From Mobula hypostoma (taxonomy: Eukaryota): a stretch of 64,000 bases of DNA. A model generated the notes under the pieces. It had not been told where the DNA came from. It made no database searches and saw only the letters and a program-made list of their open reading frames with translations. Position numbers and translations under genes: made by a program. The stretch covers positions 48,238,001-48,302,000 of the forward strand of contig NC_086097.1 in assembly GCF_963921235.1 (NCBI RefSeq), given 5' to 3'. Below are positions 6,312-47,800 of this stretch, one piece after another. Numbering within the stretch: the first letter of the stretch is position 1; each line of letters opens with the position of its first letter.

Positions 6312-6608
6312 GGCCCCACCTCCCCCTCGTACCCCATCTGTTACTTATTTTTATGCACACATTCTTTCTCTCACTCTCCTTTTTCTCCCTCTGTCCCTCT
6401 GAATATACCTCTTGCCCATCCTCTGGGTTCCCCCCCCCACCTTGTCTTTCTTCCCGGACCTCCTGTCCCATGATCCTCTCGTATCCCCTTTTGCCTATCA
6501 CCTGTCCAGCTCTTGGCTCTATCCCTCCCCCTCCTGTCTGCTCCTATCATTTTGGATCTCCCCCTCCCCCTCCAACTTTCAAATCCCTTACTCACTCTTC
6601 CTTCAGTT

Positions 6609-6644
6609 AGTCCTGACGAAGGGTCTCAGCCTGAAACGTCGACT
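6609..6644 (+). ncRNA. Minimal type I hammerhead ribozyme in the Penelope 3' region
   Basis: AGTC-CTGACGA-aggg tctcag cct-GAAA-CGTC-GACT: catalytic boxes, stem I AGTC/GACT, short stem II, palindromic ACGT stem III; predicted cut after GUC at 6640. Confidence 0.75.
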
Positions 6645-7654
6645 GCACCTCTTCCTAGAGATGCTGCCTGGCCTGCTGCGTTCACCAGCAACTTTGATGT
6701 GTGTTGCTTTTACAAAGCCATGCTGACGTTTCCTAATCATATTATGCCTCTCCAAATGCTCATAAATCCTGCCTCTCAAGATCTTTTCCATTAACTTACT
6801 AACCACTGAAGTATGACCACTGGTCTATATTTTTCCTGGGCTATCTCTACTTCCCTTCTTGAATAAGGGAACAATATTTGCAACCCTCCAATCCTCTGGA
6901 ACCTCTCCTGTCGCCATTGATGATGCAAAGATCATTGGCAGAGGCTCAGCAATCTCCTCCCTTGCCTCCCACAGTAGCCTGGGGTTCATCTCATCCGGTC
7001 CCGGAGACTTGTCCAACATGATGGTTTCCAAAATCTCCAGCACATCCTCTTTCTTAATGTTTATATGCTCAAGCTTTTCAATCCGCCGTAAGTCATCCCT
7101 ACAATCGGCAAGGTCCTTTTCCACAGTGAATATTGAAGCAAAGTATTCATTAAGTATCTCTGCTATCTCCTCCGGTTCCATACACACTTTTCCACTGTCA
7201 CACTTGATTGGTCCTATTCTCTCACGTCTTATCCTCTCACTCTTCACATACTTGTCGAATGCCTTGGGGTTTTCTTTAATCCTGTTCGCCAAAGCCTTCT
7301 CATGACCCCTTCTGGCTCTCCTATAATTTCATTCTTAAGCTTCTTTCTGCTAGCCTTACAATCTTGTAGATCTCTATCATTACCTAATTTTTTTGAAACT
7401 TTTGTAAGCTTTTCTTTTCTTCTTGACTAGACTTTCAACAGCCTTTGTACACCACGGTTCCTGTACCCTACTATCCTTTCCCTGTCTCATTGGGACGTAC
7501 CTATGCAGAACTCCACGCAAACATCCCCTGAATATTTGCCACATTTCTACCGTACATTTCCCTGAGAACATCTGTTCTCAATTTATGCTTCCAAGTTCCT
7601 GCCTGAGAGCTTCATATTTTCCCTTACTCCAATTTACTTGATTTCTTGGTGAGA

Positions 7655-16523: not shown

Positions 16524-17191
16524 ATAAAAAAGCAAGAAATATCAAGAACGTGAGATGAAGCATCCTTAAAAGTGAGTCCCTAGGCTATGGGAGCAGTTCA
16601 GAGATGGGATGAGTGAAGTTCAAGAGCCTGATGGTTGAGGGGTAATAACTGTTCTTGGACATGGTGCTGTAGGTCTTAAGGCTCCTGTACCACCTTCCTG
16701 ATGGCAGCAGAGAGAAGAGAGCCTGGCCTGGGTGGTCTTTGATGATGGATGCTGCTTTCCTGCATCAGTGTTCCATGTAGATGTGCTCAGTGGTGGGCAG
16801 GGCTTTAGCCATGATTGACTAGGCCGTAGCCTCTAGTTTTTGTAGGATTTTCCATTTAAGGGCATTGGTGTTTCCGTAGCAGGCCGTGATGCAACCAATC
16901 AATATACTCTCCACCACACGTCTATAGAAGTTTGTCAAAGTTTTAGATGTGATGCCGAATCTTCACAAACTCCGAGGGAAGTAAAGTGCTGCCATGCTTT
17001 CTTTGTAATTTCACTTACATGCTAGGCTCAGGACAGATCCTCTGAAATAACGATACCGAGGAATTTAAAGTTGCGAATCCTCTCACCTCTGATTCCCCCT
17101 CCCCCATGAGGATTGGCTTATGGGCCTCCAGTTTCCTCCTCTTGAAGTCAATAATAAGCTCCTTTGTCTTGCTGACATTCAGTGAGAGGTT

Positions 17192-17388
17192 AGGGCAACT
17201 CACACAAAATGCTGGAGGAACTCAGCAGGCCAGGCAGCGTCTATGGAGAAGAGTGCAGCTGGCATCTCAGCCTGAATCATCGACTGTGTTTTTTTCTATA
17301 GATGCTGCCTGGCCTGCTGAGTTCCTCCAGCATTTTGTGTGTGTTGCTTGTATTTGCAGCATTTGCAGGTTTTCTCTTGTTTTTGTTG
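17192..17388. mobile_element. Palindromic Penelope 3'-end mini-insertion, older subfamily
   Basis: Inverted arms gcaac..caaaatgctggaggaactcagcaggccaggcagc / gctgcctggcctgctgagttcctccagcattttg..gttgc plus tail. TSD agtgagaggtt at 17181-17191 / 17389-17399. Confidence 0.85.
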
Positions 17389-19802
17389 AGTGAGAGGTTG
17401 TTGTTGTGGTAGCACTCAGCCAGATTTTCACTTGCTCCTATATGCTGATTCATCACCACCCTTTGATTCAACCTACAGCAATGGCGTTGTCAGCAGGCTT
17501 GAATACGGCATTGGAGCTGTGCTTAGCCTCGCGGTCATAAGTGTAAAGCAAGTAGAGTAGGGGCTATGCACACAGCCTTGTGGAGCGTCTGTGCTGATGA
17601 AGATGTTGTTACCAATCTGAACTGACTGGTGTCTACGTGTGAGGAAATGAAGGATCCAATTGCACTAGGAAGTATTGAAGCCAAGATCTTGAAGCTTATT
17701 GATTAGTTTTCAGGGGATGATAGTGTTAAAAGCTGAGCAGTAGTCGATAAAGAGCATCTTGATGTATGGATCTTTGCTGTCTAGATGTTCTAGGTTGAGT
17801 AACGAGCCAATGAAATGTCATCTGCTGGGCACACTGGTTGAATGGTTATTATGCTATTATGGATTTATTGAGAATGCCTGCAAGAAAATTAATCTCAGGG
17901 TTGTATATGGTGGCATATATGTTCTTTGATAATAAATTTGCTTTGAACTTTGAACCTATTGTGCTGGTAGGCAAATTGGAGTGGATTCAAATTACTTCCC
18001 AGGGAGGAGTTAATGTGTTTCATCACCAACCTCTCAAAGCACTTCATCACAGGGAACGTAAGTGCGGCAGAATAATAGCAATTGAGGTATGTTACCACAT
18101 TCTTCTTAGGCACCAGTAGAATTGAAGCTTGCTTGAAGCAGGTGGTACCTTAAACTGCTAAAGCAAGAGGTTAAAGATGTCAGTGAGCACCCCAGCCACA
18201 TGATCAGCACGGGTCTTTAACAGTCGGCCTGGTACCTCATCTGGGCCGAATGCTTTCTGTGAGCATTTGCAAGGATTCTCTTAATGTTGGTCTTAGAGAC
18301 TGAAATCACAGAGTTATTGGGGGCTGTGGGAGTTCATGAAAATTCCTCCATGTTTTGACAGTCAAAATGAGCTTAGAAGACATTGAGCTCATCTGGGAGC
18401 AAAGCCTTGTTGTCGCCAGTGTCTCTTGGTTTAACTGTGTATGAGGTACTAGCATTCAAACCCTGCCACAGCTACTGAGCAGTGACTCAAGTCTGATCCA
18501 GAATTGCCACTTTGACTGTGAGATGGCTTTACAGAGATCGTAGCTGGACCTCCAGTATCTTACTTGATTACCAGACCTGAATGCCACTGATCTGGGCCTC
18601 AGCAGATCTCATGGTTCATCCAGGGCTTCTGGTTGGGGAAGACTTCTGAATGGTTTTGTGGGGACACACTCACCCACGACTCTTTTAATAACGTCCGTGA
18701 CAACCATGGTGTAGTTATTCAGATCCCCTGATGAGTCCTTGTATGTGGCCCAATCCGTCGACTTGACGAAATCCTCTGCCTGCCATGGCCACTTCTATGT
18801 TATTGCTCTTTAGCCTCTGCCTGTATGCAAGTAGGGGAAGGATAGCCAAGTGATCAGATTTCCTGAAGTGCAGTCTAGGCATGGAACGGTAGCCATTCCT
18901 AATTGTAGTAGATTAGTGGTTGAGTGTATTGGGACCCCTGGCACTGTGGGTTATATGCCGATGATAATTGGGCAGAGATTTCTTCAAAGAAGCCTAATTA
19001 AAGACCCGAACAATGATTTGAAATGCACCAAGATGGCAGCATTCAATATCTCAGGTGCCTGGTAGTATGTAAACTAGAAAGTTAAAACTCTCAGTACTCT
19101 TGATCTGAGCATCATTGTTGTAAACTGCAGTGTGTGCCGCCCCCTTTTCCTGAAGTCAACGACCAGCCTTTTTTATTTGCTGACATTGAGGGTTCTGTGT
19201 CTCTAGGCCCTCAATCTCCTTTCTGTACTCTGACCAGTCATTATTTGAGATATGGTCCACTGTGGTGATATCATCTGCAAACCTGAAGATGGGGTTGGAA
19301 CAGAACGTTGGAACAGATAGGAATAGAGTAGGGGTCTGAGGATGCAGCCTTGTGGGGCACTATCGTGGCAGAGGTGTTGTTTCCTATCCTTACTGTTTGT
19401 GGTCTGATGGTCAGTAAGTGAAGGATTCACTTGCAAAGGAAAGAATTGCAGTCTCAAGTCTTGAAATTTGAAGATTCTTTGCTTGGAATTATGGTATTGA
19501 AGGCGAATAAATAATAGTTTAAATGGTGGAGTCACTCTTGTTTATTTGATTCTCGTCCTCAAGTTTCTATGTCTTCATTTCGCACGTTGTAGATGTTGCA
19601 AGACCAGCATTTATTGACCCTCTCTAACTACCCTTGAGCTGGTGGTGGTAAGCTGTCTTATGGATCACTGCAGTCCTACTGATAAAGGTACTCCCACTGT
19701 TGAGAAGGAACAATGGAGGAGGAGAAATGTATTTCAAAGTCAGAGTGTGTGTAGAATGTAAGAATGCAGTAGATAGCATTCCTTCAAATTTAACTGGTAT
19801 TT

Positions 19803-22245: not shown

Positions 22246-23717
22246 ATAAATAAGTGTATTTTAGATAAGGTTTATACAGAAAAATACTTACAGTGAAACC
22301 TCAATTATCAGTGCAATGCTTTCCCAATTAAGAGGAGATGCTTGTGATTCAAGTCTGCTAAGTATTTCCACACTAATCACTTTTTGACAGCAAAATTATC
22401 CAGTGTGGGAGCAGTTGATTATCAGCTAATCTACAGGCTCATGTCCTCCATGTTGTCACCCCACAAATATATGTCTGTAAAAGTTGCTTGACAGTCCACT
22501 CCTATTTATTGATTTTCAGCATTTGGAAAGTGTGAACAGCAGATTGCACATTTGCTTGCACTCCTGCCTCAAAGGTAAAAGATACTTAAACTCTAAAATA
22601 TGGACACATAAATTATGCATTTGATGAGATCCTGAAATTATCTATGTTCGGTTCTGTAGTTAATGAAGCAAATATTGTAGCACTAATTTAAAAAGAAAAG
22701 CTAGTTTTCCTGATGTCCTGACATTATGCCTTTAATTAAAATAAAATGTAATTTGTTTCTTTTTGTGTAATTTTTCTGTGCTCAAAATACTTAAAATTTA
22801 TAAATGGGATTATAGTTTTACAAAAGGGCAGATCTCTATCATTTCTAGGACTAACTTCCAATATGATGATCATTGTAGAGGTTAACAAGTGTTACAGAAT
22901 CTGACCACCTACAACCCAAGGCCAGTTCCGTATTTTACTCAAACACTATGGTGATATTTAAATCAAAAAATGTTTCATTAGTTGTCCAACTGATGGAATT
23001 TTTGGAGGAAGAGGGTATTTTTGACAGGCAGCTGAATTCATGTCTAACAAGTAACCAATTTAGTCTTTGTTCCTGGGCAAAGGAGAAGAATACCTATTTT
23101 CTTACTATTTGTTTTGTGTAGAAGCCTGTCCATTCTTTTTTAGCAGATCAAGTGAACCCCTGTTGACTGATTACTCTCCTTGTATGTAATTGATATTTTC
23201 AGGTTAGAAATTGCATTATGATTGGGTGTCATATGGCAATATTGTGACTGTATTTTGTATTCAAAGAATAAAATCAGATTGGCAAATAATTGACAGTCAA
23301 AATTGTCATCCAAAATATTAAGCAGGCTTGTTTTTCACTTGGGAATTCTGTTCACAAAGAAGGACTAGTACTCTCTGAGTCTCTCCATGAAATATTCCAT
23401 ATTTTGCTTGATGAATAACTCAGTCCTGTGTCTCATGTTTACTCACTCTCATTCATTATTATCTTGCTTTCCTTAAACTGTTTACTCTCGCCCAGTACAA
23501 AGTGAAAGCATGGACTGGGCTCAGCACAAGCTCTTTGCATGCACACAGCCTGAGGTGGATGTGAAAGCTACTGTTTAAAATGCAACAATTGAAAATATCA
23601 CTTTTGCTCCCTGGTTTCCTATTAATAGAGTTCTTGGAGGCTTATAAAGAAAGTACAGGCTGCTCAGAAATGCTGATAATCCTTCTCCCCCTTCCAATTC
23701 AGACTACATCAAGGAAA

Positions 23718-23910
23718 CACAAACACCAGAAAACCTGCAGATGCTGGAAATCCAAAGGAACACACACAAAATGCTGGAGGGACTCAGCAAGCCAGGCAGC
23801 ATCTATGGAAATGAATAAACAGTCAATGTTTTGGCTTGAAATGTCGACTGTTTACTCTTTTTCATAGATGTTGCCTGGCCTGCTGAGTTCCTCCAGCATT
23901 TTGTGTGTGT
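23718..23910. mobile_element. Palindromic Penelope 3'-end mini-insertion, older subfamily
   Basis: Tail followed by inverted arms meeting at a decayed ribozyme. TSD tacatcaaggaaa (23705-23717) / tacatcaatgaaa (23911-23923). Confidence 0.85.
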
Positions 23911-24058
23911 TACATCAATGAAATCTTGACTGGCATTGATTTGTTTTTTGGCTTTTGTTTCCTTGTTATTGGATGGAGAAAGCACTTTGTAAGAGCTGTA
24001 TATCCTCTTGAAAAATCTTGTCACAAGAATTTGAGAGTCAAGGAAACCTTGATCTCAG

Positions 24059-25182: not shown

Positions 25183-25208
25183 CGTTCACCAGCAACTTTG
25201 ATGTGTGT
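25183..25208 (+). mobile_element. 26-bp Penelope 3'-terminal micro-insertion
   Basis: cgttcaccagcaactttgatgtgtgt is identical to 6679-6704 and lies between a perfect 15-bp duplication tgttaagacaatggg (25168-25182 / 25209-25223). Confidence 0.85.
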
Positions 25209-28900: not shown

Positions 28901-29244
28901 AAAGCTGATGTTGAACCATATGAGGGAATATTGAGATAATTAACCAAATGCTTGATCAAAGACATAGATCTATATGGCATTCTAATGGTGGGAGAGAGGT
29001 AGAGGTGTGAAATTCAGGAGTTTTGGGCTTGAGTAGCTAAGATTATTGGTGCAGATGGTGGATCGTTATGGAAGACTGGTAAAGAGAGTAAAATTGTAGC
29101 TGATATTTCCGAGAATCATAGGACTGGAGTAGGTAGTGAGGTGACAGACAATGAATTGATATGAAACCAAGGGTGAGAAAATTAAATTCATGGTGTAGCT
29201 CAACTGAGTCACTGTTATCAGCAAGTTAACATCTTAAAAATGTG

Positions 29245-29447
29245 AGCAACACACATCAAATTTGCTGGTGAACGCAGCAGGCCAGGCAGCATCTCTAGGA
29301 AGAGGTACAGTTGACGTTTCGGGCTGAGACCCTTCGTCAGGACCTTGTACCTCTTCCTAGAGGTGCTGCCTGGCCTGCTGCATTCACCAGCAAATTTGAT
29401 GTGTGTTGCCTGAATTTCCAGCATCTGCAGAATTCCTCGTGTTTACG
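29245..29447. mobile_element. Palindromic Penelope 3'-end mini-insertion with minus-strand hammerhead core
   Basis: Arms 29246-29309 / 29346-29409, tail 29410-29447. Perfect 14-bp TSD atcttaaaaatgtg at 29231-29244 / 29448-29461. Confidence 0.92.
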
Positions 29448-31282
29448 ATCTTAAAAATGTGTTGCATTGTATTTGTTTTTTTCTCTTTTGCAATGCTATT
29501 GCAGTCTTAATTATTTGTATTATCTGAAGTGATTCTCATTCAGTTGCCAGAAACTCTTGTGTTATCGTTCAGCTCTCATTTTTAACTAAAAAAACAGTGA
29601 GGGGCCCTTATTTATTTATTTTACTCTCTTAGTTCCCTTCTTTTCAGGAAGTCCAGAGGGGAGATAGCCTTTTGATTTGATTTCTCCCCCTATACTGCAT
29701 ATGAGCCAAATAGTTTGGGGAGTGATTTTAGTTCTTTACAAATCAGCAGACTAGAAAGTAATTTAATATCTCTGCTTCAAGTTAAATCAGAAACAAAAAT
29801 GTTTTGAGTAGTTGGAAGCATAGTCTCAACTGAATATAATGCACAGCAGAGCTCGGGCAGGGGGATTTACTTTGTACAGAATGTTGAGAGATATTTGACA
29901 GACTTGCAATATTAAGACAAAGGGATGATTTATTTCCATTAGTTGCCCTGAAATAATAATTATGTGAAGTGGAACGGAGAGATCAATATACATACAGAAG
30001 CTGAAGAATGTCAATAATTGAGCAATGATAAAATGGAGAAGCTGGCTGGGTGTCAAAGGGAGAGATTGAGAAAGGGACAGTTAAATTTATTATATTCCTC
30101 TGTACTTTTTTCTCCCTGTTGAATCCAACATTAAACCTATGTTAAGCGAGGCCACTAACAAATCTTATTTAAACAATTTTTTTTGTGTGAATTTGCTTAA
30201 TAAAGAATAAAAAATGCTTTTATGTGCCATAGTGTTCATATAAATTTCGTTGTAACTTCTAAATTGAATATTATATCACAATTAAGAACAGGGCAGTTTC
30301 CTTCCATCCGTAGTCCAAAGCGGCATATTTTCTGTTTACTCACTATTATCTCTCGGATAATCAGCCTAATCTTGTGCAAATGGCAAACGAATATGCCATA
30401 AAGTTGTTGGATTGTTCAGTGTACTAAGAAACCTAACTAGTATTCCTTTGTGGGACCATAAGAGGACTTTCAGGAAAAGGTCCATAAGTCTTTTATCTTT
30501 GTCTAGTTAGAAAAACCGGAACAAACCCCTAGGTTTTCCAAAGTAATTCTGGTAATGGTAAACACTTGCTCCCCCCACCCCCGCTACTCATAGGGATAGT
30601 GAAATCCTTAACATTTCTCATTGTATGAATGAATATTTCTCATCTGTCTTATATTGTTTTTACTGACTACCTTAAATCAGCTTAGCTTATTTATTCACCT
30701 GCCTGAAATGGGAAATAAGTTCTTCCAAAATCATTTCTATCTAGTCGTCCCATAATTATATGCAATTTGATGAAATCTCCGCCCAAAGTCTTCTTTTACA
30801 AAACAGAGTCAATCTTTCCTCTCGTAGTTTTCTCCAACCCTGGTAACATCCTTGTAAATACTCTGCCATTGGCATCACATGCTTCCTTTAGTGCCGTTAG
30901 GGGAACTGCATGAAGTACCCCAACTGTGGTAAAACTAGTTTTTTTTGTACACTGTAGGTGTATTAAAAATTTGTTCAACTAAATGTCACATTCTACCTGC
31001 TGACTCCTGCTTTATACATTTTGATATTTAACAGAGAGCTTTGGAGAGTAATCGGGCTTGTGCATGGGTCATTTGCTTTCTCCTGTAGGATACTGAGCTT
31101 GGTGTTTTTAGCAGGGTTCCAAGCTCACAAATGGGGCTTGTCTGCCGGGTTTACTATTGAACCTCTATACTATTGGTGAAGGAGAATTATTTCCTTAAAA
31201 ACATGTGTATTTTAATTGATATAATAGTTAAATTCTGCAAATTAATGTTGCACATATTGTTACCTAAAAGCATTAGAATGGT

Positions 31283-32100: not shown

Positions 32101-33915
32101 CATTGGCATATCACAGGTTCTTAATCTGCGTGTGTGAAAAAATGGGTTTTAAGGAAAGATTAGGGAATGATTGCTCTGAGAATTAACATTACTCAGAGGC
32201 TGAATATCCTCCTTCAATGGCATAATAAAAATGAGAGTCATTACCCCTGTCAGTGTTTCCTTATTCAATCCTTTTAATTTGTCTCTCACTCCAGAAGCTC
32301 TTACTTGCACTTCAGACAAACTAGGTGGTTTCTGTAGAGAAGAAAATGGTGGAGCCCAATCCTGCCCTTGTCCTATGTCTGCACATGTGGTCACTGTGGC
32401 GATGGCCAAGAGCTGAAGGCTTGGCTACTTTTTCTACTTCAGGGCACAAGTTTACCTCCAGTGTCTCCATCTGCCTTGAAATTACATGACTTGAGTTCTC
32501 CATGATCTTGAGATTTATTTCCAAGATGTTAAAGAAGGTCACTAACATACACAGAACCTAAGGAGTAGGTCTGGATATTATAGAATCTGCAATTAAAAAA
32601 ATACATTGACAGAAGATAGGTACAATTTTATACCTAAAAACTTCCTCTGAATATGTCCTCATATGCAGTTGAGAATTGTACTTGTAAAATAGTTGGGGCA
32701 GGAATTACCAGTGTGTAAATGTGTAAGTTAATAACTTATATCCACTTCACAAAAGCCAGTTTGTAAACCCAATATTTCTGCAAATTAAATAGAGCTTAAT
32801 TTTCCATGCCATCACTAAACTCTGTTATGTATCATTTCATAATTATTTATCAGCTTTGCAAAAATTAAACTGAATCTTGCCCTGTAAGTTGCTCTATACA
32901 CAAACAATGTATGTGCTAATGAGTGAGCTAGAAGACCAATCTAATTTGTGAAAGTCATCCACATCTATCAGTTCCAATTAAATCCACAGTAAAATTGTCT
33001 CTGAGCTGAGACCTATATAATGTGATTTACAGTGGAGTGCAATAATGTTGGATTTCATCAGTGGGATTCACAGCAGTATTAATTTAAGGTTAATTAAATC
33101 TGGTACTTTTTATAAAAAGTCCCAGTTTGAATGTCTGAGAGTAACTATGTAACAAGTTAATTGTCTGATTGTATAATATACAATAATTTAATCTTTATGA
33201 GCACGTACTGGACAAAATGAGCATGTTATCAGAATGGTCAGTAGTCGTTAGCAAGGTGCATGTGGGAGGCATTATAATTATGGTTTCAATATGTTGCTCT
33301 TTAGTGTGCAAAATTGAATTTCTTATCACTTTCTAGCAGTCAATGTTGAGTTGTTTGTAGTTACTACATCAGAAATGCACGAGAATCTAGAGAAATAAAA
33401 AAACATTAAGTGCTGGGAGACATAAGTTTGCTTTTTTGGTTAAGAATGTACTACAGTGTATAAAGATGCAGCAGCAAATAAAATGAAGTGTGGATATAAA
33501 ATAGATTTAACTGGATAAATTAGTATGCAAGGATGGATTTTATTTCTGTCTATTCAGCTTGAACAACTGTGGGCTTGTGTGAAACACTGAAATACCACAG
33601 TGGCCCCATTCTGTTTTTATGAGTAGGGCTAGCCTTGAATCTGCCATTTCCATGCCTTTTAGTGATTCACAACAGATGTTTCCTTTATTTTTAAGCTTTG
33701 CTTAGTTTCTGTTATGGGCTTTTACACTGGTTTCGAGCTTTCCATTGGATCAAACTCAGAAGTTAGGTGCAGGTAGTGTTGAAAGCATGGAATGCACTCT
33801 ACACTTGGTGCTATTGATGACCTTCATGGACTCTTTGTTTATGCAGCAAATGTAGGTTTTTAGTAATTTATTGCAGGTTTGTTTCCTGAATAGGAAGCAG
33901 ACAGTATATGGAGGA

Positions 33916-34136
33916 ACATACATCAAAGTTGCTGGTGAACGCAGCAGGCCAAGCAGCATCTATAGGAAGAGGCGCAGTCGACGTTTCAGGCCGAGACCCT
34001 TCGTCAGGACGAAGGGTCTCGGCCTGAAACGTCGACTGCACCTCTTCCTATAGATGCTGCTTGGCCTGCTGCGTTCACCAGCAACTTTGATGTATGTTGC
34101 TTGAATTTCCAGCATCTGCAGAATTCCTGTTGTTTG
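33916..34136. mobile_element. Young palindromic Penelope 3'-end mini-insertion with hammerhead
   Basis: Arms 33915-34005 / 34008-34098 (one mismatch), tail to 34136. TSD agtatatggagga at 33903-33915 / 34137-34149. Confidence 0.93.
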
Positions 34137-35882
34137 AGTATATGGAGGAGATCATTTCCATTCCATGCAAAAATGGTGAAAACCACACATTGCCTCAGAA
34201 GTTTCCTGTCTTCATTAAATTATTGTCAATATTGAAACTTTATTAAAATAGCACCAATGCTTGTTCTTAAAGAAAAAAGGCTGCTATTTCAATCCCGCCT
34301 GACTCCATTCATGTTGGTTCACTTTGGTTGTGAGTTCATAATTAGAGAGGCCCTCCATTGGTCATGGTCGCCAATGAATGTTGTGTCCTAGCTGTCTATG
34401 TTATTGACACGCAAACCAGTATGCATGCCAGGCCAGTTTATAATGAACTAAAAGGGTAAATTAAAGTATAAGAGTTGCTGGACTGAAGAGATCAATAGAG
34501 GCAAAGTTGGAAACAAGATAACGATGAAAGGGATAGGGTTGCTAGAGGCAGAAGTGGTTAGAATGTCTATTGGGATTTATATTTTTATTCAGATTGGTTA
34601 GGAAGGCCATTGAAATTATATGCCTTACATTAACAGCCCAGAGTAAAGCAAATTCTGGTGAGTTTTTGTAATAAAAATGGGCAAGACTTCTTAGGTTTAT
34701 TTATTTTGTCCATTTTTCTGACTGTTGCTAACCACCAGATCAGGCATATTGCCCTATCAGCTCTGCATCATTTGTAAGAGGTTTTACATCCAACACTGCT
34801 AGATATCCCAATGCACCCTGTTGTTCAGTGCTCCTGGGCCAGCATTGATTGTACTGGGTGAGTTGCTGATATGCATAGTCTGTTTTCTTTTTGTGTCTAT
34901 GATGCCAGAATGGAAGAAATATCTTTTGTAATAGATGGAAAATGCTCACTGCACTGGAAAAAAGTTACATGATGGCTCAAGACCATGTCTGTCATTGTCT
35001 CTCAGCCATTCCTCTGTTTCAGTGAGCACAGTACAGACAGAAGCTATCTTCATATTAAGTTGACAACTCACTCAAGTATTTCCTGGTGATGTGTATGCGG
35101 TTTTTCAATTACATGCTGCCAACTGCTTCTTCCATTTAATTGAGTCATAGTCAGCCTTAGTTGCTTCTTGGATCTTGGCTTTGAAACCCGAATGGCAACA
35201 ATAATAAGAATGAGCCTTATTTCTGTGTATATGCTGTCTGTAATTGCTGTGGTGTTCGACTGGAGTACAGTGGATATGGATGGAAGTGTTTTTGTTTGAA
35301 GGTTCCAACATATATAGTATTTGCTACTCTGTCCTGCACTTGTCCTTAGGAACCAGCCTGACCATGGCACCTTCTTCCATGAGTGGTCACGTTGGGTTAG
35401 TTCATCTACATCACTGCATGATAATTGTGAAGGGAGTCTGTGTAGCCTCTTGTTCTAGTCACATAAATGGTGAACTAAGTGAAAGGTGTTTACCTCTGCA
35501 GGAATATTTCTGTAGTTTCTTTTCAAAGATCTGTGAAGGGATCAAATGAGGTACATTTACTAACCAATCCCATTTACCCAACTACCTAACCTTTTTTTCC
35601 TTTTGATATGAAGTGTAAAGCACACGTTGCGCATGAGAGAGTTCAAATTACCTCCCAGTTTATTTGGCATTTAATCCCATTAACACAGGTCATACTTGAC
35701 TAGTTAGCTGCATACTTGTACATTATCTGGATTTCAACTTCTCGAATTCGGATTTTACAGGGTAAAATTGGTTTGAATCATTGAAATACCTGCATTTCCC
35801 GGGTCATCTGCAAAAAATAAGCCAACCAAACTTACTGCTCAAAGGTGATATTGAAAACTGATTGTTTGTTGTTTCCTTTCAG

Positions 35883-36092
35883 GTGAAGGTGATGGTACGG
35901 ATTTGTCCTTCCCAAGGGACAAACAATACATCAGAATCGATGTCCTTTCTGAAAGTAGACTCTCGCAAAAAACAAATAACCCTCTACGACCCCTCAGTGA
36001 GTGGGCATTTGAGTTCCACCCACAGGAGAACAGTGGTTGCAGCTCCAAAAATGTTTGCATTTGATGCAGTTTTCACCCAAGATGCCTCGCAG
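35883..36092 (+). CDS. KIF26A: KIF26A motor-domain exon (VKVMVRICP...[15 protein letters not shown])
   Basis: tttcag acceptor, GTGAGC donor, 210 bp, phase 0/0; kinesin N-terminal strand and FxFD motif. Confidence 0.95.
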
Positions 36093-36206
36093 GTGAGCAG
36101 AAGGAAGATAAAGTAAATAGCTAAGTTCATCCTCAATATCAGCTTGAATTAGTCTTGTATTCATTCCAGTGTAACATAATTTATTCTTTTGCACTAATAA
36201 TCCTAG

Positions 36207-36300
36207 GCTGAGGTCTGTTCAGGAACAGTGGCAGAAGTCATTCAGTCTGTTGTGAATGGTGCAGATGGCTGCATATTCTGTTTTGGTCATGTCAAGCTTG
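36207..36300 (+). CDS. KIF26A: KIF26A motor-domain exon ([32 protein letters not shown]); missed by the ORF track
   Basis: tcctag acceptor, GTGAGC donor, 94 bp; encodes the first part of the P-loop. Confidence 0.95.
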
Positions 36301-37487
36301 GTGAGCTTCCAATTTATTTTTGCTGTTAATTACAGTGTTGGACTAGTAATTACATGCTGTCAACCTCTGTAACAATAAACCTGATAGTATACGACTGAAG
36401 TAGAATTTTCTTTTCAATGGACTTTGCTGATTTACTAAAATTTGTTTCTAAATTATTTCTTGAAACGTCAGTAGGAGCAAAAGCAATAAGGTTTAAAGTA
36501 TAACAGTTAATATGAGATCTTTGATTTTGGCCATGACTTGTTGAATAAATAAGCTATTCTTAGTCATGAAAATGACTTCCCTGTATTGTTCATCATTCAC
36601 ATATCCTACAACCTTCTATTCTACTTCCTTTCTACCCACCCCGGGAATACTTCTTGTACTTCCAAGGCACTTCCAGTACTCAACCTTTGAACCTTTAGTT
36701 TTCAGTGATTGATAATATTATTGCAGCTGTCAATTTGTTCAGCCACTCCATCACCTCTACATTTGGTGGTCACATCCACTGTAAAACCTTTGTTCTCGTT
36801 CCCAGTTCAGGTACCTTGCAGTTTAGAGAAAATGTAACAGATTCTCAGAAATATTAGACTTGGAAGGAGGCCTTTCAGCCTAGGGAGCCCATACTAGCTC
36901 TCTGATTGAGTAATTTATCCATCTTCTCCTCACAGTCCTGCAAGTTCTTTCACTTTGTACTTATTCAGCCCTGCTTTGGGATGTCATAATTGGATTGCCT
37001 CCATTATCACACTAGTTGACTCCAGATTCTAACTCTTTGTGTTATAAGTAGTATTCTCTTCGTGTATCTTTTGATTCTTTAACTAATCACACTTATCCTC
37101 ATGTCCTCTGATTTCTGATCCCTTGAATGACTGACCTGCTGACATCATATATTGCAATGTACCCAATATATTTGTACATTGCCAAGAGGAGTGTGTACTC
37201 TGCACACATAGGTTTCACCCTGAAGTGTAATTTGCCAGTCTGGGTCTCTACTCCTGTGGGAGGCCTATGCACCTCCTGCTGCCTCCAGAGTAACTACAAC
37301 CATAGCAGCTGGCTGCCTCATCTTCCAGTCAGAAGATGTTGAGGTCTGTTGGTGCTCAGAGCACACCACTGAGATGTCAATGTGACATGATCCTCAAGAA
37401 AATGAGGCAAATTTATCATGTTTACGTCTATCTAGATCACTAAAGGAATTAAACAATTGAATATTCGAATTTACTTTTCACTTCCAG

Positions 37488-37750
37488 GAAAGACATATAC
37501 TATGATTGGAAAGGATAATTCAATGCAAAATCTTGGTGTTATTCCTTGTGCAATATCCTGGCTTTTTAAATTAATAAATGAACGCAAGGAGAAAACTGGA
37601 ACTCGATTCTCGGTCAGGGTTTCTGCTGTGGAGATCTGGGGCAAGGATGAAAACCTTAGGGACTTGTTATCTGAAGTGGCCACCGGCAGCCTCCAGGATG
37701 GCCAGTCTCCTGGTGTCTACCTCCGAGAGGACCCAGTCTGTGGGACTCAG
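37488..37750 (+). CDS. KIF26A: KIF26A motor-domain exon ([10 protein letters not shown]...[11 protein letters not shown])
   Basis: ttccag acceptor, GTATTT donor, 263 bp; completes the P-loop GHVKLGKT. Confidence 0.95.
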
Positions 37751-38002
37751 GTATTTTTATTATACTACATTAATTTTGCTGTTTTGAAGTATATTGGTAT
37801 TGTGACATTTCTGTTGTGCATCAAAGAATATTTGAAATGTTCCAGCTATGTTTAAAATGTCACTGCCACAGTCTTGGCTTTACATTTTTTCATCTTTGCT
37901 CCCTTGGTATACATAATTTATTACGAATTGCCCCAGAGACCTAATCTGTTGAGCAGAAATGCAACCCTCTTCCAATTAGTAATAGTTTTCTCTCGTATCC
38001 AG

Positions 38003-38186
38003 CTTCAGAATCAAAACGAGCTGAGAGCCCCCACGGCAGAAAAAGCCGCCTACTTCCTTGATGCTGCAATTGCGTCCAGAAGGACCAGTAGGCCAGACTG
38101 TGATGAGGAGGCGAGGAGGAACTCCCATATGCTCTTTACACTTCACATTTACCAATATCGAATGGATAAGAGTGGCAAAGGGGGAA
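38003..38186 (+). CDS. KIF26A: KIF26A motor-domain exon ([16 protein letters not shown]...[23 protein letters not shown])
   Basis: tccag acceptor, GTATGT donor, 184 bp; switch I region. Confidence 0.95.
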
Positions 38187-38307
38187 GTATGTTCACTTTT
38201 AAGGTCAAAGCAGTATTTTCTTATCATTAAAATAGTTTGCATTCATTATATCGGTTAGTAAATTCAGAGTGGCTCATTGGTTCTATGCACCTTGCTCTTC
38301 CCTTTAG

Positions 38308-38467
38308 TGTCCGGAGGGCGCAGTCGTTTGCACCTGGTAGACTTGGGAAGCTGTGAAAAGGTTCTCAGCAAGAGTCGGGATGGTGGCGGTGGTCTTTGTC
38401 TGTCACTTTCAGCTCTGGGCAATGTCATTTTGGCATTAGTAAATGGGGCTAAACATGTTCCATACAA
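38308..38467 (+). CDS. KIF26A: KIF26A motor-domain exon ([17 protein letters not shown]...GAKHVPYK)
   Basis: ctttag acceptor, GTAAGT donor, 160 bp; switch II region and HVPY motif. Confidence 0.95.
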
Positions 38468-40589
38468 GTAAGTAAAATTCATGAGTAATTAAGAATGAAC
38501 TCTGGGTAAATCATTTTGCTGCAGAGATAATTGTTTATGAAAAGCATTCTGCCTAGAAATTCATTGAGTATGTTTATTTGAAACTTTTGAATGTTCCATT
38601 CTGCCTTAAATCCGCTTCCGTTGCAGACAGTGGAACTGAAATGGGATTCATGGTTGCTATTACACAGCCATTCCTCAATTTATGATAGGCATGACTTCCT
38701 GGAAATTGATTCATGAAATCAGAAATAGTTTGGCAAAACACACTCCATATATTTTGCAACAGTATGTTCCCATAGGCAGAGAATGGTCCACTGTTCATTA
38801 TAATAACAAATACCTTTTGTAACTTGAAGGCACATACAGTATTTAAAAGAGTCAGTGTTATTACAGCATAGAGTTGTATGAGCATTTGTGAGTCAAGAAG
38901 CATTTGTATCTAATAATCTAATTGAATCTATGTCTAATGCTATTGTCCAATCTGAGTTTTTAGATATTTTGGAAAAAGAACAGGTTCCTAAAGCAAAAAT
39001 CATGCTACATTTTTAGATAAGATAGCTATTTCTTATTTTTTTTTAAATGAGGTTTATAAACTGCAACTCTCTCTTTTACAACTTAATCAGTTTTCTGCAT
39101 GTTAGAAAGTAATGATCATCGGTTGTTTCAGGCTTGCAGCCATGTTTCTAGGTGGTCTGCTGGAGTAAACGGTCTGCCCTCTTCACGTGGTTGGGTGGGT
39201 TGGTCTAGGGACTTCAGGTGGAAGAGATCCTGTGCTTTGTCCTACTTGATATTCCTTGGAATTGCGGTGACTGGCCAGGTGTGATTTGCAGCGGATTTGC
39301 TATAATCTTCGGTGGGACAAATTGCCTCGCATTCTGGGGCTAGCCACTCTAAAAACACAGCCACTCATTAGGTATTCCAAACATGGTAAGGCCAGAGGGA
39401 GTGATCAGGGTCTGGCACAACTCAGCTCTTAATTTCTGTTTGGCATGACAGCCAGATTATAAACTATCCAGAATTTACTAACAAATTGTAAGATGGCATG
39501 AATTTAAACTTTTAATTTAAACAAAGGACCGCAGGGACAAAGGACCACATGGGCTCGGTTGTTGGCTCTCAGAAGGAGACACATTGAGCTAAATTTTATT
39601 GGAAAAATAACAGCGTGTTAATAACACACTATTATTAATGCGGAGCAGCATATTGAGGGGATTAAGAAATCCAACATGAATTATGAATCAACAGATCAGT
39701 TTACTTTGATGAATTTATACCTTTTCACTGTTTGCTTCCCAGATATATCCTTGGTTTTCCTGTTATTTTTAATAACTGCTGAATCTGCACACTAATTGAT
39801 CATTAAACCCACTGCATAAAGTTAAAACTTGTGATTTTAAGGCTCCTTTAAATGTGATAATTGCCAATTGCTATGCCAGTCGAACTGTCTAGCCCAGAAA
39901 GAACAATTTAAACTGTTCAGTTTCATCCCACCTGGAACTATATTATTCTTAGAAAATCGAAGTATTTCTAATTTTAGCTTGCTGCTTTGATTTCCTTTTC
40001 CTTTCCCTTTACGCAATTTCCCTCTTTTTATTTTCCTTTCAGTACCTGATCTGATTCTAATTCACCCTTCTCTTCCATTATCTTCTATTGTGCAATCATT
40101 AAATTTCATTGGTTTAGAAGATATTCTGTTAGTCATGCTATCCCCTGAAATTGCTGGAAACCCATCGCCCTGATCAAACTGCGGTCAGCTGACATTTCCA
40201 GCAAATTTTTCTGTTAATAATTTGATCAAATTTGGTGCTTGCTTATGAATGAAAATTGCATCTCAGTCATTTTAATTTAATGTAAGCATTATTGAAGAGT
40301 TGATGAAAGAAAGATAGTTTTTCAAATTTGGATGGAAATGATTTGACACATAACCCAATTGTTCTAAGTTCATTGCCACAGGCCAGAAATATAGAAGCAC
40401 AGCCAGTGAGTGGACAGTTTCTTTACATTTGTACCAATAATAAAAATCTCTGTGGAAAAGGCTTTCTAATTATGCTAAACATGTGATTTTGTAATCATCT
40501 GCCATAATATTTGCTGTATTTGTATTTGTTTGGAATGACATAAAATGTTCCCCATGCACAGAGAATAAAAAGATTTAAGTTAATGGAGA

Positions 40590-40805
40590 CAACAGGAATT
40601 CTGCAGATGCTGGAAATTCAAGCAACATACATCAAAGTTGCTGGTGAACGCAGCAGGCCAAGCAGCATCTATAGGAAGAGGCGCAGTCGACGTTTCAGGC
40701 CGAGACCCTTCGTCAGGACTGACGAAGGGTCTCGGCCTGAAACGTCGACTGCGCCTCTTCCTATAGATGCTGCTTGGCCTGCTGCGTTCACCAGCAACTT
40801 TGATG
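40590..40805. mobile_element. Young palindromic Penelope 3'-end mini-insertion with two hammerhead cores
   Basis: Tail 40590-40627, perfect 89-bp arms 40628-40716 / 40719-40807. TSD taagttaatggaga at 40576-40589 / 40806-40819. Confidence 0.95.
40684..40721 (-). ncRNA. Minimal type I hammerhead ribozyme
   Basis: Reverse complement reads CAGTC-CTGACGA-AGGGTCTCGGCCT-GAAA-CGTC-GACTG, with a 5-bp stem I. Confidence 0.7.
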
Positions 40806-41031
40806 TAAGTTAATGGAGAGATTTTTTTGACTGAAGGGAAGAATTATTCTGTTTTTCTTTACCTGAAATGAAATTCTAACTTAAGACCTTTTTAATCCCT
40901 ATTACACGTGGAATGTGAGGAAAGAGCACAAAATGTAAAGATTTTCCTTCATGTATAAATGAACTAATATTGAAAATGCTTAATCAAACACTTTCCTTGT
41001 ACTTAAATGTATTTGTTCTGTTGCACAACAG

Positions 41032-41194: not shown

Positions 41195-41382
41195 GTCAGT
41201 CCTGGTTTTGTCTTAAGTTTTAAATGATACTAGTTTCTAATATGGACTTGCAAAGTATTTTGATTACTTTGTTGTGAATAACATTAAATCTTAATATAGT
41301 AAGTATTTATCTCGATTTCTTTTCTGTTATGTTTGTGGTTCTATTTCCACTCTAAAAGTAAACTGTTTTCTTTTTGAACCAG

Positions 41383-44300
41383 TATGCCTCAAGTTCTTCT
41401 GGTGGGGAGAGTTCTTGTGAAGAAGGTCGGATTCGAAGACCGCCTCACTTAAGGCCCTTTCATGCAAGAACCACAGCTCTTGATCCTGATCTTCCAGCAT
41501 TAGGAATATCTAGTGAACCCGACTACTCTTCGAGCAGTGAACAATCATGTGATACAGTTATTTACGTTGGTCCCAACGGTGCAGCACTCTCTGATCGTGA
41601 ACTGACAGATAACGAAGGTCCGCCAGAGTTTGTACCCATAATCCCTTCCCTCAGCAAGAAATGTGAGCCGAAGAAGGGTAAGGAAGCTGCCACAGTTGGT
41701 AAGAGGAGTGAAAGGGATTATTTCAAATGCAACACTTTTGCAGAGTTGCAAGAGAGATTGGAGTGTATTGATGGAAGTGAGGAACCCATCAAATTTTCTT
41801 GTGAGCAGGGACTTTTCATTTGCAGTAGTAGTGTAGGCCCCCCAAGGGTAGAGAATGCGCAATGTATCTCCGTACAGGAAGTGACACAATCTGTCGTGGT
41901 ATCAGAAAAGGTACCTTCTTCACAAATGTATGGAAAACATTCTTCAGTCGAAGCAGGGTCTTGTAAAAAAGGGCAGAATTTGGAGCCCCCCATTTCTGCA
42001 AAGCAACAAAATGGATCACCTGTGTGGAGCCCATCTCACTTGCCTCACTCCATAACAACTGAACATTTAAAGCTGCAGACTCAAGGTGAAGGAAGCAAAC
42101 TGGAAGCAAGTGGTGATAATGAGGCAGAAGGAATCAAGGAAACAACCACGGCTTCCACCAATATGCACAGACCCAACTGCTCTATGACGCAAGAGCAGCC
42201 GCAGGCCACGCCCAGGCCTGTCGTGAGGGAGAAATCATTTTTCAACAGGAGACCTTTGCCGAGCCCTGCTCCCCCACCTCCACAACTGAAAGAAAGGCAA
42301 AGCGTTAGTTCGGAACTCAGCAGCAGTGGTGGAATTAGAACTCCTCCAGTAGGAATGAGCCATCAGAGCACAAGTAAACCTGAATCAGCCATAATTAGAA
42401 AGGAAGTGGGCAACTACAGAAGTGGATATAAGCAATCTGGTGCATCAGACGCAACCGGCTTACGATCAGCATTGCGGAGCGGGTGCATTGACCGAGATAT
42501 GTTGACCACCACCGTGACATTGCAGCAGCCAGTGGAACTGAACGGAGAAGATGAGTTGGTATTTACTGTTGTAGAGGAGCTGTCATTTGAAGGTATTTTG
42601 GAAAGTGGTCGACCGGCTAGCATTATTAGCTTTAATAGTGATTGTTCACTTCAGGCACTGGCTTCGGGTTCACGGCCCGTCAGTATTATTAGTAGCATTA
42701 ATGATGATTTTGAAGCTTATACCTCACCGGCAGCCAATGCTGGATCAAATATAGACACTGCTGGGCTACTTACAGATGATTCTTTTTGCAACAACAGTAG
42801 ACGCTCATCGATTAGCTCCTGGCTCAGTGAAGTAAGTATCTGTGCTATAGAAAGTGACGGAGCACAACCATCCGATACTTTTGTTGTGCAGTCTTGCTAC
42901 AGTTACGGTGAGAAGTTTAACTTGGATTCACCTGATGTGCTGCAAGACATGACCACACCACTGACACTGGCTCAACAAAGCATCTTGAATGATGGTGCAT
43001 TCCGTCCTTCTGAACTGGCTAATGAAATTACGAGCTCAAGCAGACTTCTTTCACACACCAACCAAGGTTCTAATGCCTTAAGTTTATCCAAAGTGATGAC
43101 TGTTACTAATAATTCATCAGTAACTAAGGCAAGCACCCCAGTCCACCATCCTGACCCAACGATTTCTGAAGGCAATCCTGTTTGCTCCTCTAGTCTTCCC
43201 AGGAAAATAAAGTCTACCTCAGCTGTGAGCCAGAGTAGTAGCACAGTACATTGTGGAGAAAGGCAATGGCAAGAAAGTGAGCTCGAGGATCCCTGGTTAC
43301 TTCGCACGAACAGCCAATCAGTACCAAAAATAGAGGATCAAGCACTCTCAGTGAAGTCACCTCCCAAATCTGGTACCAACAGTCAAATTAAACAGCAAAC
43401 AAAAATGGCCCAGAATACTGGGACCATTCCTCGGCTCAGCAAATTTCACACAACAGTTTCCTGTACACAACGAGTTGTGTATGGGTGTGAAATGGCGAGT
43501 AAATCGACTGCGGCTAATGGTGTCACAGGTGTGAATGGCAGAAAGAATGAAGTGCCGGCAAAAGTGGTGCAGGTTAAAAAAGGAAGTGCGATGGTTGCAA
43601 CAATGCCAATAATGCACACCAGTGCCAGTGCTGGAGCTGTACCCAAAGACCAGCGAGACACAAGCAGCTTAAAATCAACAGCTAGTAGGAAAACATCAGC
43701 AGCCAAGACAAGCATGCTGCCAAGGCTCAATGGGACACCGCCAGCACCCCCTGTCCGTAAGTCTAGTCTTGAGCAAAAAAACAGAGCTGTGCCACAAAAA
43801 TGTACCAGTCCAGAGGCAGTTATGGTATCACCTCCCAGATCAGAAGATGAAATAGATCGAGCACTAAATGTGGCTCCTTGTGCTGTTGAGGGTAGCTGCA
43901 ACAAAGCAGCAAACATAAAATCTGATCAGTTCTCCATTAGAAGTATTTCAGCTTCAAAATCCAGAATGCCTAAACTTGAGGCAGTGCATTGCTGTGGAAG
44001 TCAGCTGTCACTCGAGAGGTGTGATAGTCTGTCGTCAGTGGGATCCAAGAACAGTATGACCAAAGAAAGTGGTCACCCTGCCAACAGCAACAACAGCAGA
44101 ACTGGACGCTCAGTACCAAGGCTTGGTGTGTCACCGTCAGCTCCAGTAATGTCTACCCCATCTATTCCTGTGGTCCCCGTACCAGTTAAATCCAATCAAA
44201 CCAAATGTCCTTCCAATAGCAAGGCATTGGTTGCAGGAAACAAGTGTCGAAGCCTCTCTTCAAGCGGTGCAAAGGGGTTAAGCACATCTGTTAAGTCGTT

Positions 44301-44845
44301 AACGCAGTCAGTGGGGCGTAGTTCCAGTGTACCATCGAATGGAAAAACAGTACCTCGCTCAGCACAGGTAGCCAGTTGTAAACCTGGCAAAGGAACAATT
44401 ATGGGAACAAAGCAAGCAGTCAGGGCAGCCAACAGCCGTGTGTCTGAATTAGCTTCTGCAGCCTCATCCAGTAAAGTGGGCCATTTGAGAGGATCTGCTG
44501 ATTCTGATAGTGGGAATGACAGTGGAGTCAACTTGAGTGATGAAATAATGCAGATGCCAGTCTTGCCTTCTCCATACAGTAAAATAACTGCACCAAGACG
44601 GCCTCAGCGTTACAGCAGTGGGCATGGTAGTGACAACAGCAGCGTCCTTAGCGGAGAGCTGCCACCGGCCATGGGAAGAACGGCTCTCTTTTATCACAGC
44701 GGTGGTAGCAGTGGCTATGAGAGTATGATTCGTGACAGTGAGGCAACAGGGAGTGCGTCATCCGCACACGATTCCATGAGTGAAAGTGGGATGTCCACAG
44801 TTGGCCGCAACAGAAGTTCCAAGTCCCCCAAGAAGCGGACAGCAG
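41383..44845 (+). CDS. KIF26A: KIF26A giant exon encoding the Ser/Pro-rich tail (YASSSSGGESSCEEGR...HSGGSSGYESMIRDSEATGS...SPKKRTA)
   Basis: accag acceptor, GTAAAC donor at 44846, 3463 bp open frame with KIF26 blocks (DYSSSSEQSCDTVIYVGP, NGEDELVFTVVEEL, PSPYSKITAPRRP). Residues [29 protein letters not shown] and RRPPHLRPFH favour paralog A over B (from recollection of the human sequences). Confidence 0.93.
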
Positions 44846-47800
44846 GTAAACGTTGTGCATGATATTATTGTACTACTTGACTTGTGTTTCTCGGAATGGG
44901 AAGTTTTAATAAACAACTGGGCAAATAATGATTCTTATGTAGATAATAATGGAAGTTGAAGTTGTATTGTGCAAATGTGTTTTCAGTTCAAGCATTTTAA
45001 AACATTTACTGTTTTAGGTGCTCTAAGTTACAACAAATCTTGTATTAGTAGTTCACTTCATTAATTATTGTGCCACAGAGTTGTGGAGCTACCCACTAAA
45101 AAAGACCATTGTATGATGGCAGTATTACCATTCTCTAGAAACTAGGCTGTCTAAGCTTTTTGCCTGTTATTTCCTAAATTGTCTCCACCAATCCCCATAC
45201 TTTCTTTTTCCTTGAATGACAGCAATTTCTTTCTGGGTTACAATTTTCAGTTCACCACTGCCTTCCAGTATCTTGTCTCTTGTTCATTGTTTGTACCCAA
45301 CTCAGCTGGTTGTTGAATGGAAACACAGTTCCCATTTAAATCTATGATTTTCAAGACAATTGAATTTGCAGGTTCTGAAGCTGTGGTCTGTAAAATGAAA
45401 GGACCTGAACGTGATATGTAATGCAGCTGGGTTAGAAAATGATATGTGTTTGTTGCTGGGTAATACTGTGTTTCAGTTATGTCCTCTGGAAACTGAGGTG
45501 ACATTGAACTTGGGTATATAGTATGAATGCATGTGGACAGTAATTATAAAATGAGAAATGTATATCATGTGATGGACTACTTGTTACTTGCAGTAGGCAC
45601 TAGAGGGTGTGAAGGATGTCTTTGCACTTTCAATATTCAAATGTTGTTAAGAGCCTCAGGGCAGATTAAAAAATTAAAAGGTCAGTTTTGCAGAAAGAAT
45701 TGGTTGCAGAAGAAATGACGTTTAGTTGGCAGCAGTGGGACTCCCTTTAGTTTATTGGGTCAGGATGGTAGATATTACTGAAGGTAGTCTGAGATATGGC
45801 CTACAATATGTAAATGGTCCATTCCTAGAGGTCATCTCCATATGATATAATATTATATTATCCCAATTTTGTCAATGAAAGGGCTTCCCACTGTTTAGAT
45901 ATGTAATATTTCTCTCCATAATTCACTAGCAATGCCTATCAGATTTTACTTGTGGTAGATTAAGGCAATCAATTAGAAACCAGTTGGCATTGTTTAAATC
46001 TACGCACCGACTATGTTAACAATATGTTGAATGCAACCTAAACTGCTTATGATAATTGTGCAAAGTGGACTTGAACAGGAGCAAAGAGCACTGGTTATGT
46101 TTCACCAAGAGAGTTATTATTCTCATCAATAGTTGTCAAATACCAAGATGCTTTCTTTGGAACAGTCACCTCAGTATCAACACCCATTGAACAGCTGGCT
46201 ACACCACAACCTTGTCAGAGAAGAATCTGTGACCTGAAAAGGCTTGTGAAAAAAAATTGTTCAAAGGTTGAAAGGACATTGCTAAGGTGCTATGCCACTG
46301 AAGAAATGGAAGAGTCACAAAGTTCTTTCTAGCAGGCAAACCGTCTACTTTGGAGTTACAGATAATCTGGTGAGTTTTAAATTAATTTGTTTTGTGTGAA
46401 AAATATCATTGTCTGAACTAAGCCGAGGCAGAATCTAAAAAAATAATCTGGACCTTTTTAAAAAATTTCACCAAAAGTATTCCAAGTCTGCCTGAATTTG
46501 AATTGTCTGCTTTCAATCCCACAGGTGATTAACAATTTGTCCTTTGTTCCTTTTGTCTCCTTAGGTGCATTTTTTGAGCTGTACACAATTCAGTGCAATA
46601 GGATTTGATTCTTCCTGACAGCCTGGAGGAGAACCAGAGAGCAAGGAGTCCACTGCTGGGGAGAAGTCATTGGGACTTAATGACAGCATGCCATTCAGAT
46701 GTTTCTCAATGAAAATGAACTTCAGGCGAGGCTTACGGGAGCTGATTGATAGCACTAATTGATTTTCCTGTGCCAAGCTTTAAATCTATGCTATTATCTG
46801 CAGCAAACTTTGATGGAATAATTCACTAGATTTACATTACAACTATGATTACATTTCAAAAGTCCTTCATTGACTACACAGTGTATCAAAAGGTTCTGAA
46901 AGGAAGATGAAAATCGCAATATAAGTGCAAGTCTTTTCTCTTTAATTTAACTTGAACAGTCTATCATTCACCTTAACGACAAGGATGGTTATTAGGTATT
47001 TGTGCATTACTGGCAATGATTTCCCTGTCACTTAATTGAATAATAGAGGCTCAAATTACAGTTTGCAATTTGCAACTTTTGCTAATGGAGTCAAGAGCTA
47101 TGGCCACCAGAATGTAGACTGAATCTCCACTCTATTTGCAAACCATAGCTATAGGAAATGGCAGTAGTCTATTTTCAATCCCTAGGATATTGCACTGGAT
47201 CTGATAACCTCTGGCTCCATGTAGCTATAGCCTGACTCTCAGTGGTGTGAAGGCACCTTCCTCCTATCTGATCATATGCAGAGATTCTCTGGAGTCACCT
47301 CAAGCATTTAGAAGTCCCACATTCAAAGGCTGAGGGAGAAATATGAATAAGAAGCAAACATAGACTTTAATTCATTGCCTAACCCCTCAGGGCAGTGCAG
47401 AGGTGAAATATTTTTTGCTTATAATAGACATACTGATATTGGGACAATTTGATCCCTATATGTGCTAGATAGGTTAAAGCAATGGTGATATTATTGAACA
47501 AATGTTGTAGCAAAACACCATTGAAGCAGTATTGGTCCACACCATTTAGAGGGGATTAAGTACATCAAATAATTCTCCATTGAACGTATCAGTGATTGCA
47601 ATCAGTCTTGAGCAATAACCCCAGTTGGAGGTGATTTATCATACAGGGAATTACAGTCTAATGAGGCGTGACCATTTGAGTAAATACGTGTAACAGCCCA
47701 TGCTACATGAATGTTGGCAGCAGTAATTTTGGAAAATTAACTTTGTGGAAATGGTAAATTGGTTAGTAATGTTTGGTTAATTTAAATGATTACCTGCTTA

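Follow-up and report, generated by a model that had tools for sequence, protein, structure and literature searches.

Introduction

Endonuclease-bearing Penelope-like elements (PLEs) are known to leave inverted, 5'-truncated insertions in their hosts. The inverted truncated copy, the one-sided tail and the palindromic junction have already been described (in passages of PMC3846280, PMC8557442 and PMC8969392); as reported in PMC3846280 and PMC8557442, these insertions combine a head-to-head copy with a tail of 30-40 bp at one end, a junction palindrome and a target-site duplication (TSD). In those cases, the inverted copy flanks a unit bearing an ORF, and the TSDs cited measure 8-10 bp. The parts of PMC8557442 and PMC11167929 that deal with the building of inverted and tandem PLE insertions call the process undefined.

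Three other systems are closely related. PLE pseudo-LTRs (pLTRs) carry minimal type I hammerheads with a core, a short helix I and a palindromic helix III (PMC4209133). The same source reports opposite-strand hammerhead pairs, 100-700 bp apart, in Schistosoma, its passages on them giving no TSDs, junction map or mechanism, and notes that, in Drosophila virilis, an intron terminates at the 5' end of helix I. In vitro, PAc, a Poseidon element of Anolis, cuts both target strands and extends each; it has AT-rich targets and two internal reverse transcription (RT) starts that bound the tail. PAc belongs to another clade than the element studied here, and the sections on these assays are silent on inverted products and on any stop zone (PMC11167929). 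Finally, non-LTR retrozymes are non-coding derivatives of PLE pLTRs with a hammerhead, arranged as head-to-tail tandem units, according to the part of bioRxiv 10.64898/2026.07.22.740005 that describes them.

Here, we describe PLE-derived stubs in a window of 64,000 nt of the Mobula hypostoma genome. Unlike the inverted insertions cited above, the stubs have two arms of ~60-135 nt each, no ORF, a TSD of 13-14 bp and a copy number estimated in the tens of thousands; their two hammerhead motifs overlap or touch, and they are head-to-head single insertions with differing centres, in contrast to retrozymes. The architecture is thus largely published, which narrows the novelty that a first-pass annotation had suggested. 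Among the papers listed by full-text literature searches, none described the ORF-less class in cartilaginous fish or the junction zone; repeat databases may contain such an entry.

Results

Inverted insertions in the window

Self-comparison of the window revealed five head-to-head repeats of 193-221 bp, whose two arms match the 3' end of the PLE family represented at 4573-6706 (Table 1). The first-pass annotation had listed five inverted-copy insertions of ~200 bp with a ~40-nt tail on one arm; all five were found where it had placed them, each flanked by a separate TSD (13-14 nt) and bearing a tail of ~39 nt on one arm only. All window coordinates count from its first letter. Arm positions are given on a scale in which 0 is the first base of the hammerhead core (window 6613) and cleavage is predicted after +27, following the architecture outlined in PMC4209133. 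The arms were also said to join in or near the hammerhead; this held for the position, at its 5' edge, while an intact core was present only in the insertions at 29245, 33916 and 40590, with none found in those at 17192 and 23718. The term "ribozyme-centred" is true of position, and causation by ribozyme cleavage is putative.

Table 1. Coordinates of PLE-derived insertions and related features in the window.
Feature	Position	Strand	Details
Longer inverted insertion, same PLE family	4573-6706	+	within older LINE-like repeat
TSD of 4573-6706 insertion	4558-4572 and 6707-6721		15 nt
Minimal type I hammerhead motif (by sequence; architecture as in PMC4209133)	6609-6644	+	position 0 = 6613; predicted cleavage after +27
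Older-subfamily mini-insertion	17192-17385	.	tail right; without hammerhead core
TSD of 17192 insertion	17178-17191 and 17386-17399		14 nt, 1 mismatch
Older-subfamily mini-insertion	23718-23910	.	tail left; without hammerhead core
TSD of 23718 insertion	23705-23717 and 23911-23923		13 nt, 1 mismatch
Smallest single-arm stub	25183-25208	+	26-29 nt; 15-nt TSD
Young mini-insertion	29245-29447	.	left arm to hammerhead -3; right arm from just past predicted cleavage site; tail right
TSD of 29245 insertion	29231-29244 and 29448-29461		14 nt
Young mini-insertion	33916-34136	.	short arm left; 3-nt microhomology 34008-34010; tail about 34098-34136
TSD of 33916 insertion	33903-33915 and 34137-34149		13 nt
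Young mini-insertion	40590-40806	.	tail 40590-40628; left arm to 40716; 2-nt centre 40717-40718; right arm 40719-40806
TSD of 40590 insertion	40576-40589 and 40806-40819		14 nt
Single-arm insertion, same PLE family	54738-54827	-	likewise ends at hammerhead position 0
TSD of 54738 single arm	54726-54737 and 54828-54839		12 nt

The longer insertion begins with an inverted, tailed arm of 589 nt (4574-5162), followed by a 5'-truncated forward copy in which the RT/GIY-YIG frames are broken. An empty paralogous site was found for it in 19 alignments, and for the single arm at 54738 in 15 alignments. Window positions 3300-7634 and 53800-56001 hold copies of a single LINE-like repeat (86-90% alike). 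The PLE family struck both, at LINE coordinates ~100 nt from each other. PLE fragments that are older and have no clear TSD were seen at 518-782, 1071-1152 and 2581-2706. In the insertions at 17192 and 23718, the arms are unlike at several non-CpG places, at about +30 to +45, as though two older variants were present; these differences may be explicable by age alone.

The window also contains a kinesin motor-domain exon (37436-37855, forward strand; Pfam E 4e-12) and another exon of the kinesin gene with an open frame of 1166 codons (41362-44862, forward strand). The C-terminal sequence presumably resembles that of KIF26. The 40590 insertion lies between these exons, and is therefore probably intronic.

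Parent element

Among the insertions of a putative Neptune-type PLE, classed as Neptune/Nematis-type by its linker motif, the stubs form the shortest class. One locus, L043, has an open frame of 623 aa with a GIY-YIG match (E 6e-4, under Pfam's cut-off), and 1110 of the 8000 scored candidates match this frame at E <= 1e-30. Many of these relatives contain RT (PF00078) and some contain GIY-YIG (PF01541); the nearest named matches are ray and shark proteins. The window copy at 4573-6706 also gave a weak GIY-YIG match (E 4e-4). Both the L043 translation and the window frame contain a CX2-5CxxC linker and two cysteines within GIY-YIG. This linker, placed before GIY-YIG, marks Neptune and Nematis and is missing in Penelope/Poseidon, according to the section of PMC8557442 on these clades; a candidate assignment to Poseidon was dropped on this evidence.

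At L040:1356-5214 (G000:C1:110,001,356-110,005,214), we identified a 3.86-kb partial-tandem copy (pLTR-ORF-pLTR) that has an open stretch of 612 codons and is flanked by a 13-nt repeat. Exact read-through junctions from pLTR to ORF numbered only 18 in the genome; exact genome matches to four 36-nt arm variants numbered 60,375. Internally deleted, retrozyme-like units make up about ten of these 18 read-through loci. At L257:943-1840 (G000:C5 near 196,244,000), head-to-tail units of ~359 nt, each made of the hammerhead region and ~165 nt of the ORF start, form a retrozyme-like array that is closed by an inverted tailed arm. At L164:1412-1656, a mini-insertion lies within the ORF of a further family member.

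Among the long arms, the first hammerhead box was present in 75/92 and the second in 68/92, and helix I had 4 pairs in 65 of the 83 scored. The core boxes and helix I define a minimal type I hammerhead whose self-cleavage is putative. An Rfam scan gave no match to a hammerhead model, only to hairpin families below threshold.

Abundance

The best matches to the 40590 insertion all have its junction, owing to selection by score, so unbiased samples were drawn instead. A sample of 1.6 Mb, made up of 160 stretches of 10 kb at even spacing, contained 43 short head-to-head pairs, including a few doubtful ones (L213, L215, L245), as well as 3 tail-to-tail pairs. With 12 young and 31 older pairs among the 43, the earlier proposal that subfamilies of different age make the stubs was borne out. 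A TSD was present in 11/12 young and 14/31 older pairs versus 3/42 controls. The genome-wide density is ~1 per 37 kb, lower than the one per 10 kb first suggested; the window is enriched (5 in 64 kb versus 1.7 expected, P = 0.03). Provided that density is even, the genome would hold ~93,000 minimal copies (68,000-126,000).

A stricter pass for the young subfamily in the same sample gave 11 short and 7 long inverted copies among 71 insertions; a TSD of 11-17 nt was found in 11/11 young copies versus 0/65 shifted-flank controls. The sizes form a continuum: among 54 head-to-head pairs, 36 were short and 18 spanned 0.4-4.3 kb. The short ones, picked by arm sequence and spacing alone, are the unselected copies used below; junction counts omit L305-L308 (4/40), at which the 5' walk halted at poly-C tracts.

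Target duplications and outer ends

Of 126 loci examined, 99 carried a single tail and an exact TSD once duplicates and misses had been set aside. The TSD measured 13-14 nt in 69/99 copies (range 11-18), and its A+T content was 67% versus 58%, a likeness to the AT-rich targets of PAc (as given in part of PMC11167929). Empty paralogous sites, in which an older repeat contains the TSD sequence once and no insertion, were found for 31 of the 88 short copies; the TSDs are therefore true duplications. Both longer window controls also have such sites, and none of the five window mini-insertions has an empty paralogue in the fetched DNA. A search of 4 runs for an empty orthologous site of the 40590 insertion met no reads across its flanks.

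The outer end of the tailed arm fell at +125 to +137 in 99/99 copies, and that of the other arm at +82 to +101 in 92/99 (earlier in 7/99), which defines two zones ~37 nt apart. In the unselected copies, the tail was on exactly one arm in 34/36. The outer ends overlapped the TSD somewhat (mean 1.1 and 1.6 nt versus 0.35).

Being short, non-coding, palindromic and present in many copies, the stubs look like MITEs moved by a DNA transposase. However, both ends vary, where a DNA transposon would have fixed ends and a TSD of 2-9 bp, the tail is one-sided, and the sequence derives from the terminus of an RT/GIY-YIG element. Variable ends together with the length of the TSD refute this reading, to which we assign next to no probability. 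The description of the stubs as MITE-looking, non-coding products of PLE retrotransposition is supported, also by the empty sites.

Junctions and stop zone

All 36 unselected junctions were different. Fifteen had microhomology of 1-6 nt, 5 were blunt and 16 contained 1-11 inserted nt; among the inserts of 9-11 nt, 3/5 copied 7-8 nt of neighbouring sequence. Such short, locally copied inserts resemble what we take to be polymerase-theta joining.

Arm ends were concentrated at -10 to +10 (49/72; P = 6e-20 versus an even spread over -60 to +52), with 7/72 farther upstream and 16/72 downstream. Of those downstream of +10, 6 of 16 lay at +25 to +31 (P = 0.04). The hot zone is thus the ribozyme's 5' edge; the predicted cleavage site, about 30 nt farther downstream, is at most a minor peak. 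That ribozyme cleavage sets the centre, with cDNAs running off the cleaved RNA end, would fit this minor peak and the insertions at 29245, L093, L296 and L301; it would account for a minority only, since at least 56/72 arm ends go well beyond the cleavage site. We regard it as highly improbable as a general explanation; moreover, cleavage was unnecessary for insertion in vitro, in the assays reported in part of PMC11167929.

Single arms (at 54737, L063 and L105) end in the same zone as paired arms, indicating that the stop is independent of a partner arm. At -6 to 0, 86/92 arms have a putative initiator-like motif; helix I or a splice acceptor could also account for its conservation. A branch-point-like, pyrimidine-rich stretch, presumably acceptor-like and comparable to the D. 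virilis intron end at helix I (PMC4209133), ends at -6/-2. A check for splicing as a possible cause of the stop zone found GT..AG in 0 of the 15 joints listed out of 195, and the L259 join is without a donor. Read-through 5' ends (18 loci) fell at +7 to +100 or at -25 and beyond, with 0/18 at -10 to +5. The L177 junction (L177:1125-1169) contains 37 nt from +163 to +199, downstream of the tail, indicating that the template extended past the tail.

The two commonest exact junctions tested, those of the 33916 insertion (28 nt, found 404 times in the genome) and the 40590 insertion (32 nt, 198 times), are perfect fold-backs with a 2-nt loop. They match what is expected if one cDNA self-primes at the quasi-palindrome by the hammerhead 5' edge and uses itself as template; such self-priming has been suggested for palindromic PLE junctions in the relevant passage of PMC3846280. 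The region does fold as a hairpin, over -20 to +11, but the strength of this fold does not exceed that of shuffled sequences (z -0.4 to -1.0), and in older subfamilies it is no more than moderate. Furthermore, microhomology is absent from 21/36 junctions, the second arm has a sharp end at +82 to +101, and single arms halt in the same zone without any fold-back. We consider copying of one cDNA on itself unlikely, a judgement to which the haplotypes described below also contribute.

Arm concordance and haplotypes

At non-CpG diagnostic sites, the two arms agreed in 75/76 cases versus 45 expected and in 66/68 versus 36 expected (85 copies). In 135 pairs, a set partly biased towards agreement by the choice of 36 pairs, the arms agreed in 119/122, 121/122 and 100/102 cases; in the stretch common to all four lists, they agreed in 18/21. 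Mismatch between arms was nine-fold higher at CpG sites (7.2%) than at non-CpG sites (0.78%). As non-CpG sites agree, the arms were alike at insertion, and the disagreement at CpG sites argues against later homogenisation. Twelve rare non-CpG variants were common to both arms. These nearly always single-haplotype arms are also what self-priming of one cDNA would give; against it, L146, alone of the 135 young pairs, clearly has two source haplotypes, and the same junction occurs with the tail on either side, although a fold-back strand cannot outrun the start of the strand that it copies.

The copy numbers of the two recurrent junctions led us at first to suspect masters, that is, a non-autonomous family in which a few palindromic copies would be transcribed and then mobilised whole by retrotransposition. 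Likewise, 13 of the best 40 matches to the 40590 insertion round to 100% identity over 215-217 nt. However, these junctions occur on 9 and 8 non-CpG haplotypes and in both orientations to the tail (left/right 12/18 and 17/13 in the first 30 loci of each). Recurrent junctions are also rare overall (1/36 unselected), no shared master centre exists among the 36 differing junctions, and TSDs adjoin the arms, with no common flank among the best matches to 40590. Such a family is very unlikely in our view.

Discussion

The stubs are a short variant of a known insertion type, real and abundant. The features established here are their PLE origin, true TSDs, two outer-end zones, a junction zone, variable joins and single-haplotype arms. 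We think it probable that cDNAs are primed from both target nicks, halted in one zone and end-joined, each stub being made afresh. An endonuclease would nick both strands 13-14 nt apart, and each 3' end would prime reverse transcription, one at ~+130, which would yield the tail, and the other at ~+93. Both cDNAs would tend to finish at -10 to +10, a minority stopping at the ribozyme cleavage site; their ends would then be united by microhomology or short templated inserts, and fill-in would produce the palindrome and the TSD. Where one or both cDNAs extended further, long inverted copies such as 4573-6706 would result.

In L1 twin priming, both nicks likewise prime and the cDNAs are united by microhomology; the L1 pieces come from different parts of the RNA, whereas both arms of a stub cover the same 60-100 nt. 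In favour of priming at both nicks, the outer-end zones match the two RT starts of the Anolis PLE in vitro, as reported in part of PMC11167929. Several observations weigh on the other side: arm concordance is equally compatible with fold-back of one cDNA, two source haplotypes are clear in only 1/135 young pairs, the two most frequent exact junctions among those tested fold back perfectly, and the outer ends overlap the TSD, as opposed to the homology-independent start described in vitro in that part of PMC11167929.

As for what sets the stop zone, our first choice is the RNA 5' end, the template RNA most likely beginning there; a pause at an RNA hairpin is the second. An RNA start at this place predicts read-through 5' ends at -10 to +5, which were seen in 0/18 loci. 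A more specific scheme, which we hold as tentative and rather doubtful, is that reverse transcription begins ~100-140 nt in from the transcript's 5' end and runs off at the hammerhead 5' edge. A long copy would then need a jump to a matching 3' repeat or a circular RNA, and failure of both strands would give a joined palindrome. Pointers to this scheme are the stretch from downstream of the tail in L177 and the presumed initiator-like motif. Moreover, the in vitro template requires sequence downstream of the tail (in the assays covered by part of PMC11167929), and such sequence is offered by the pLTR-ORF junction only. If the scheme were true, PLEs would have a retrovirus-like strand transfer coupled to two-strand target priming.

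Stubs will be taken for MITEs or, given the sub-threshold Rfam matches, for microRNA hairpins, which is a risk for annotation. From the predicted folds, intronic copies would give 60-90 bp of double-stranded RNA in host transcripts. For PLEs themselves, stubs are a dense, measurable record of integration, the estimated 68,000-126,000 minimal copies sharply defining the nick stagger, both start sites and a stop zone.
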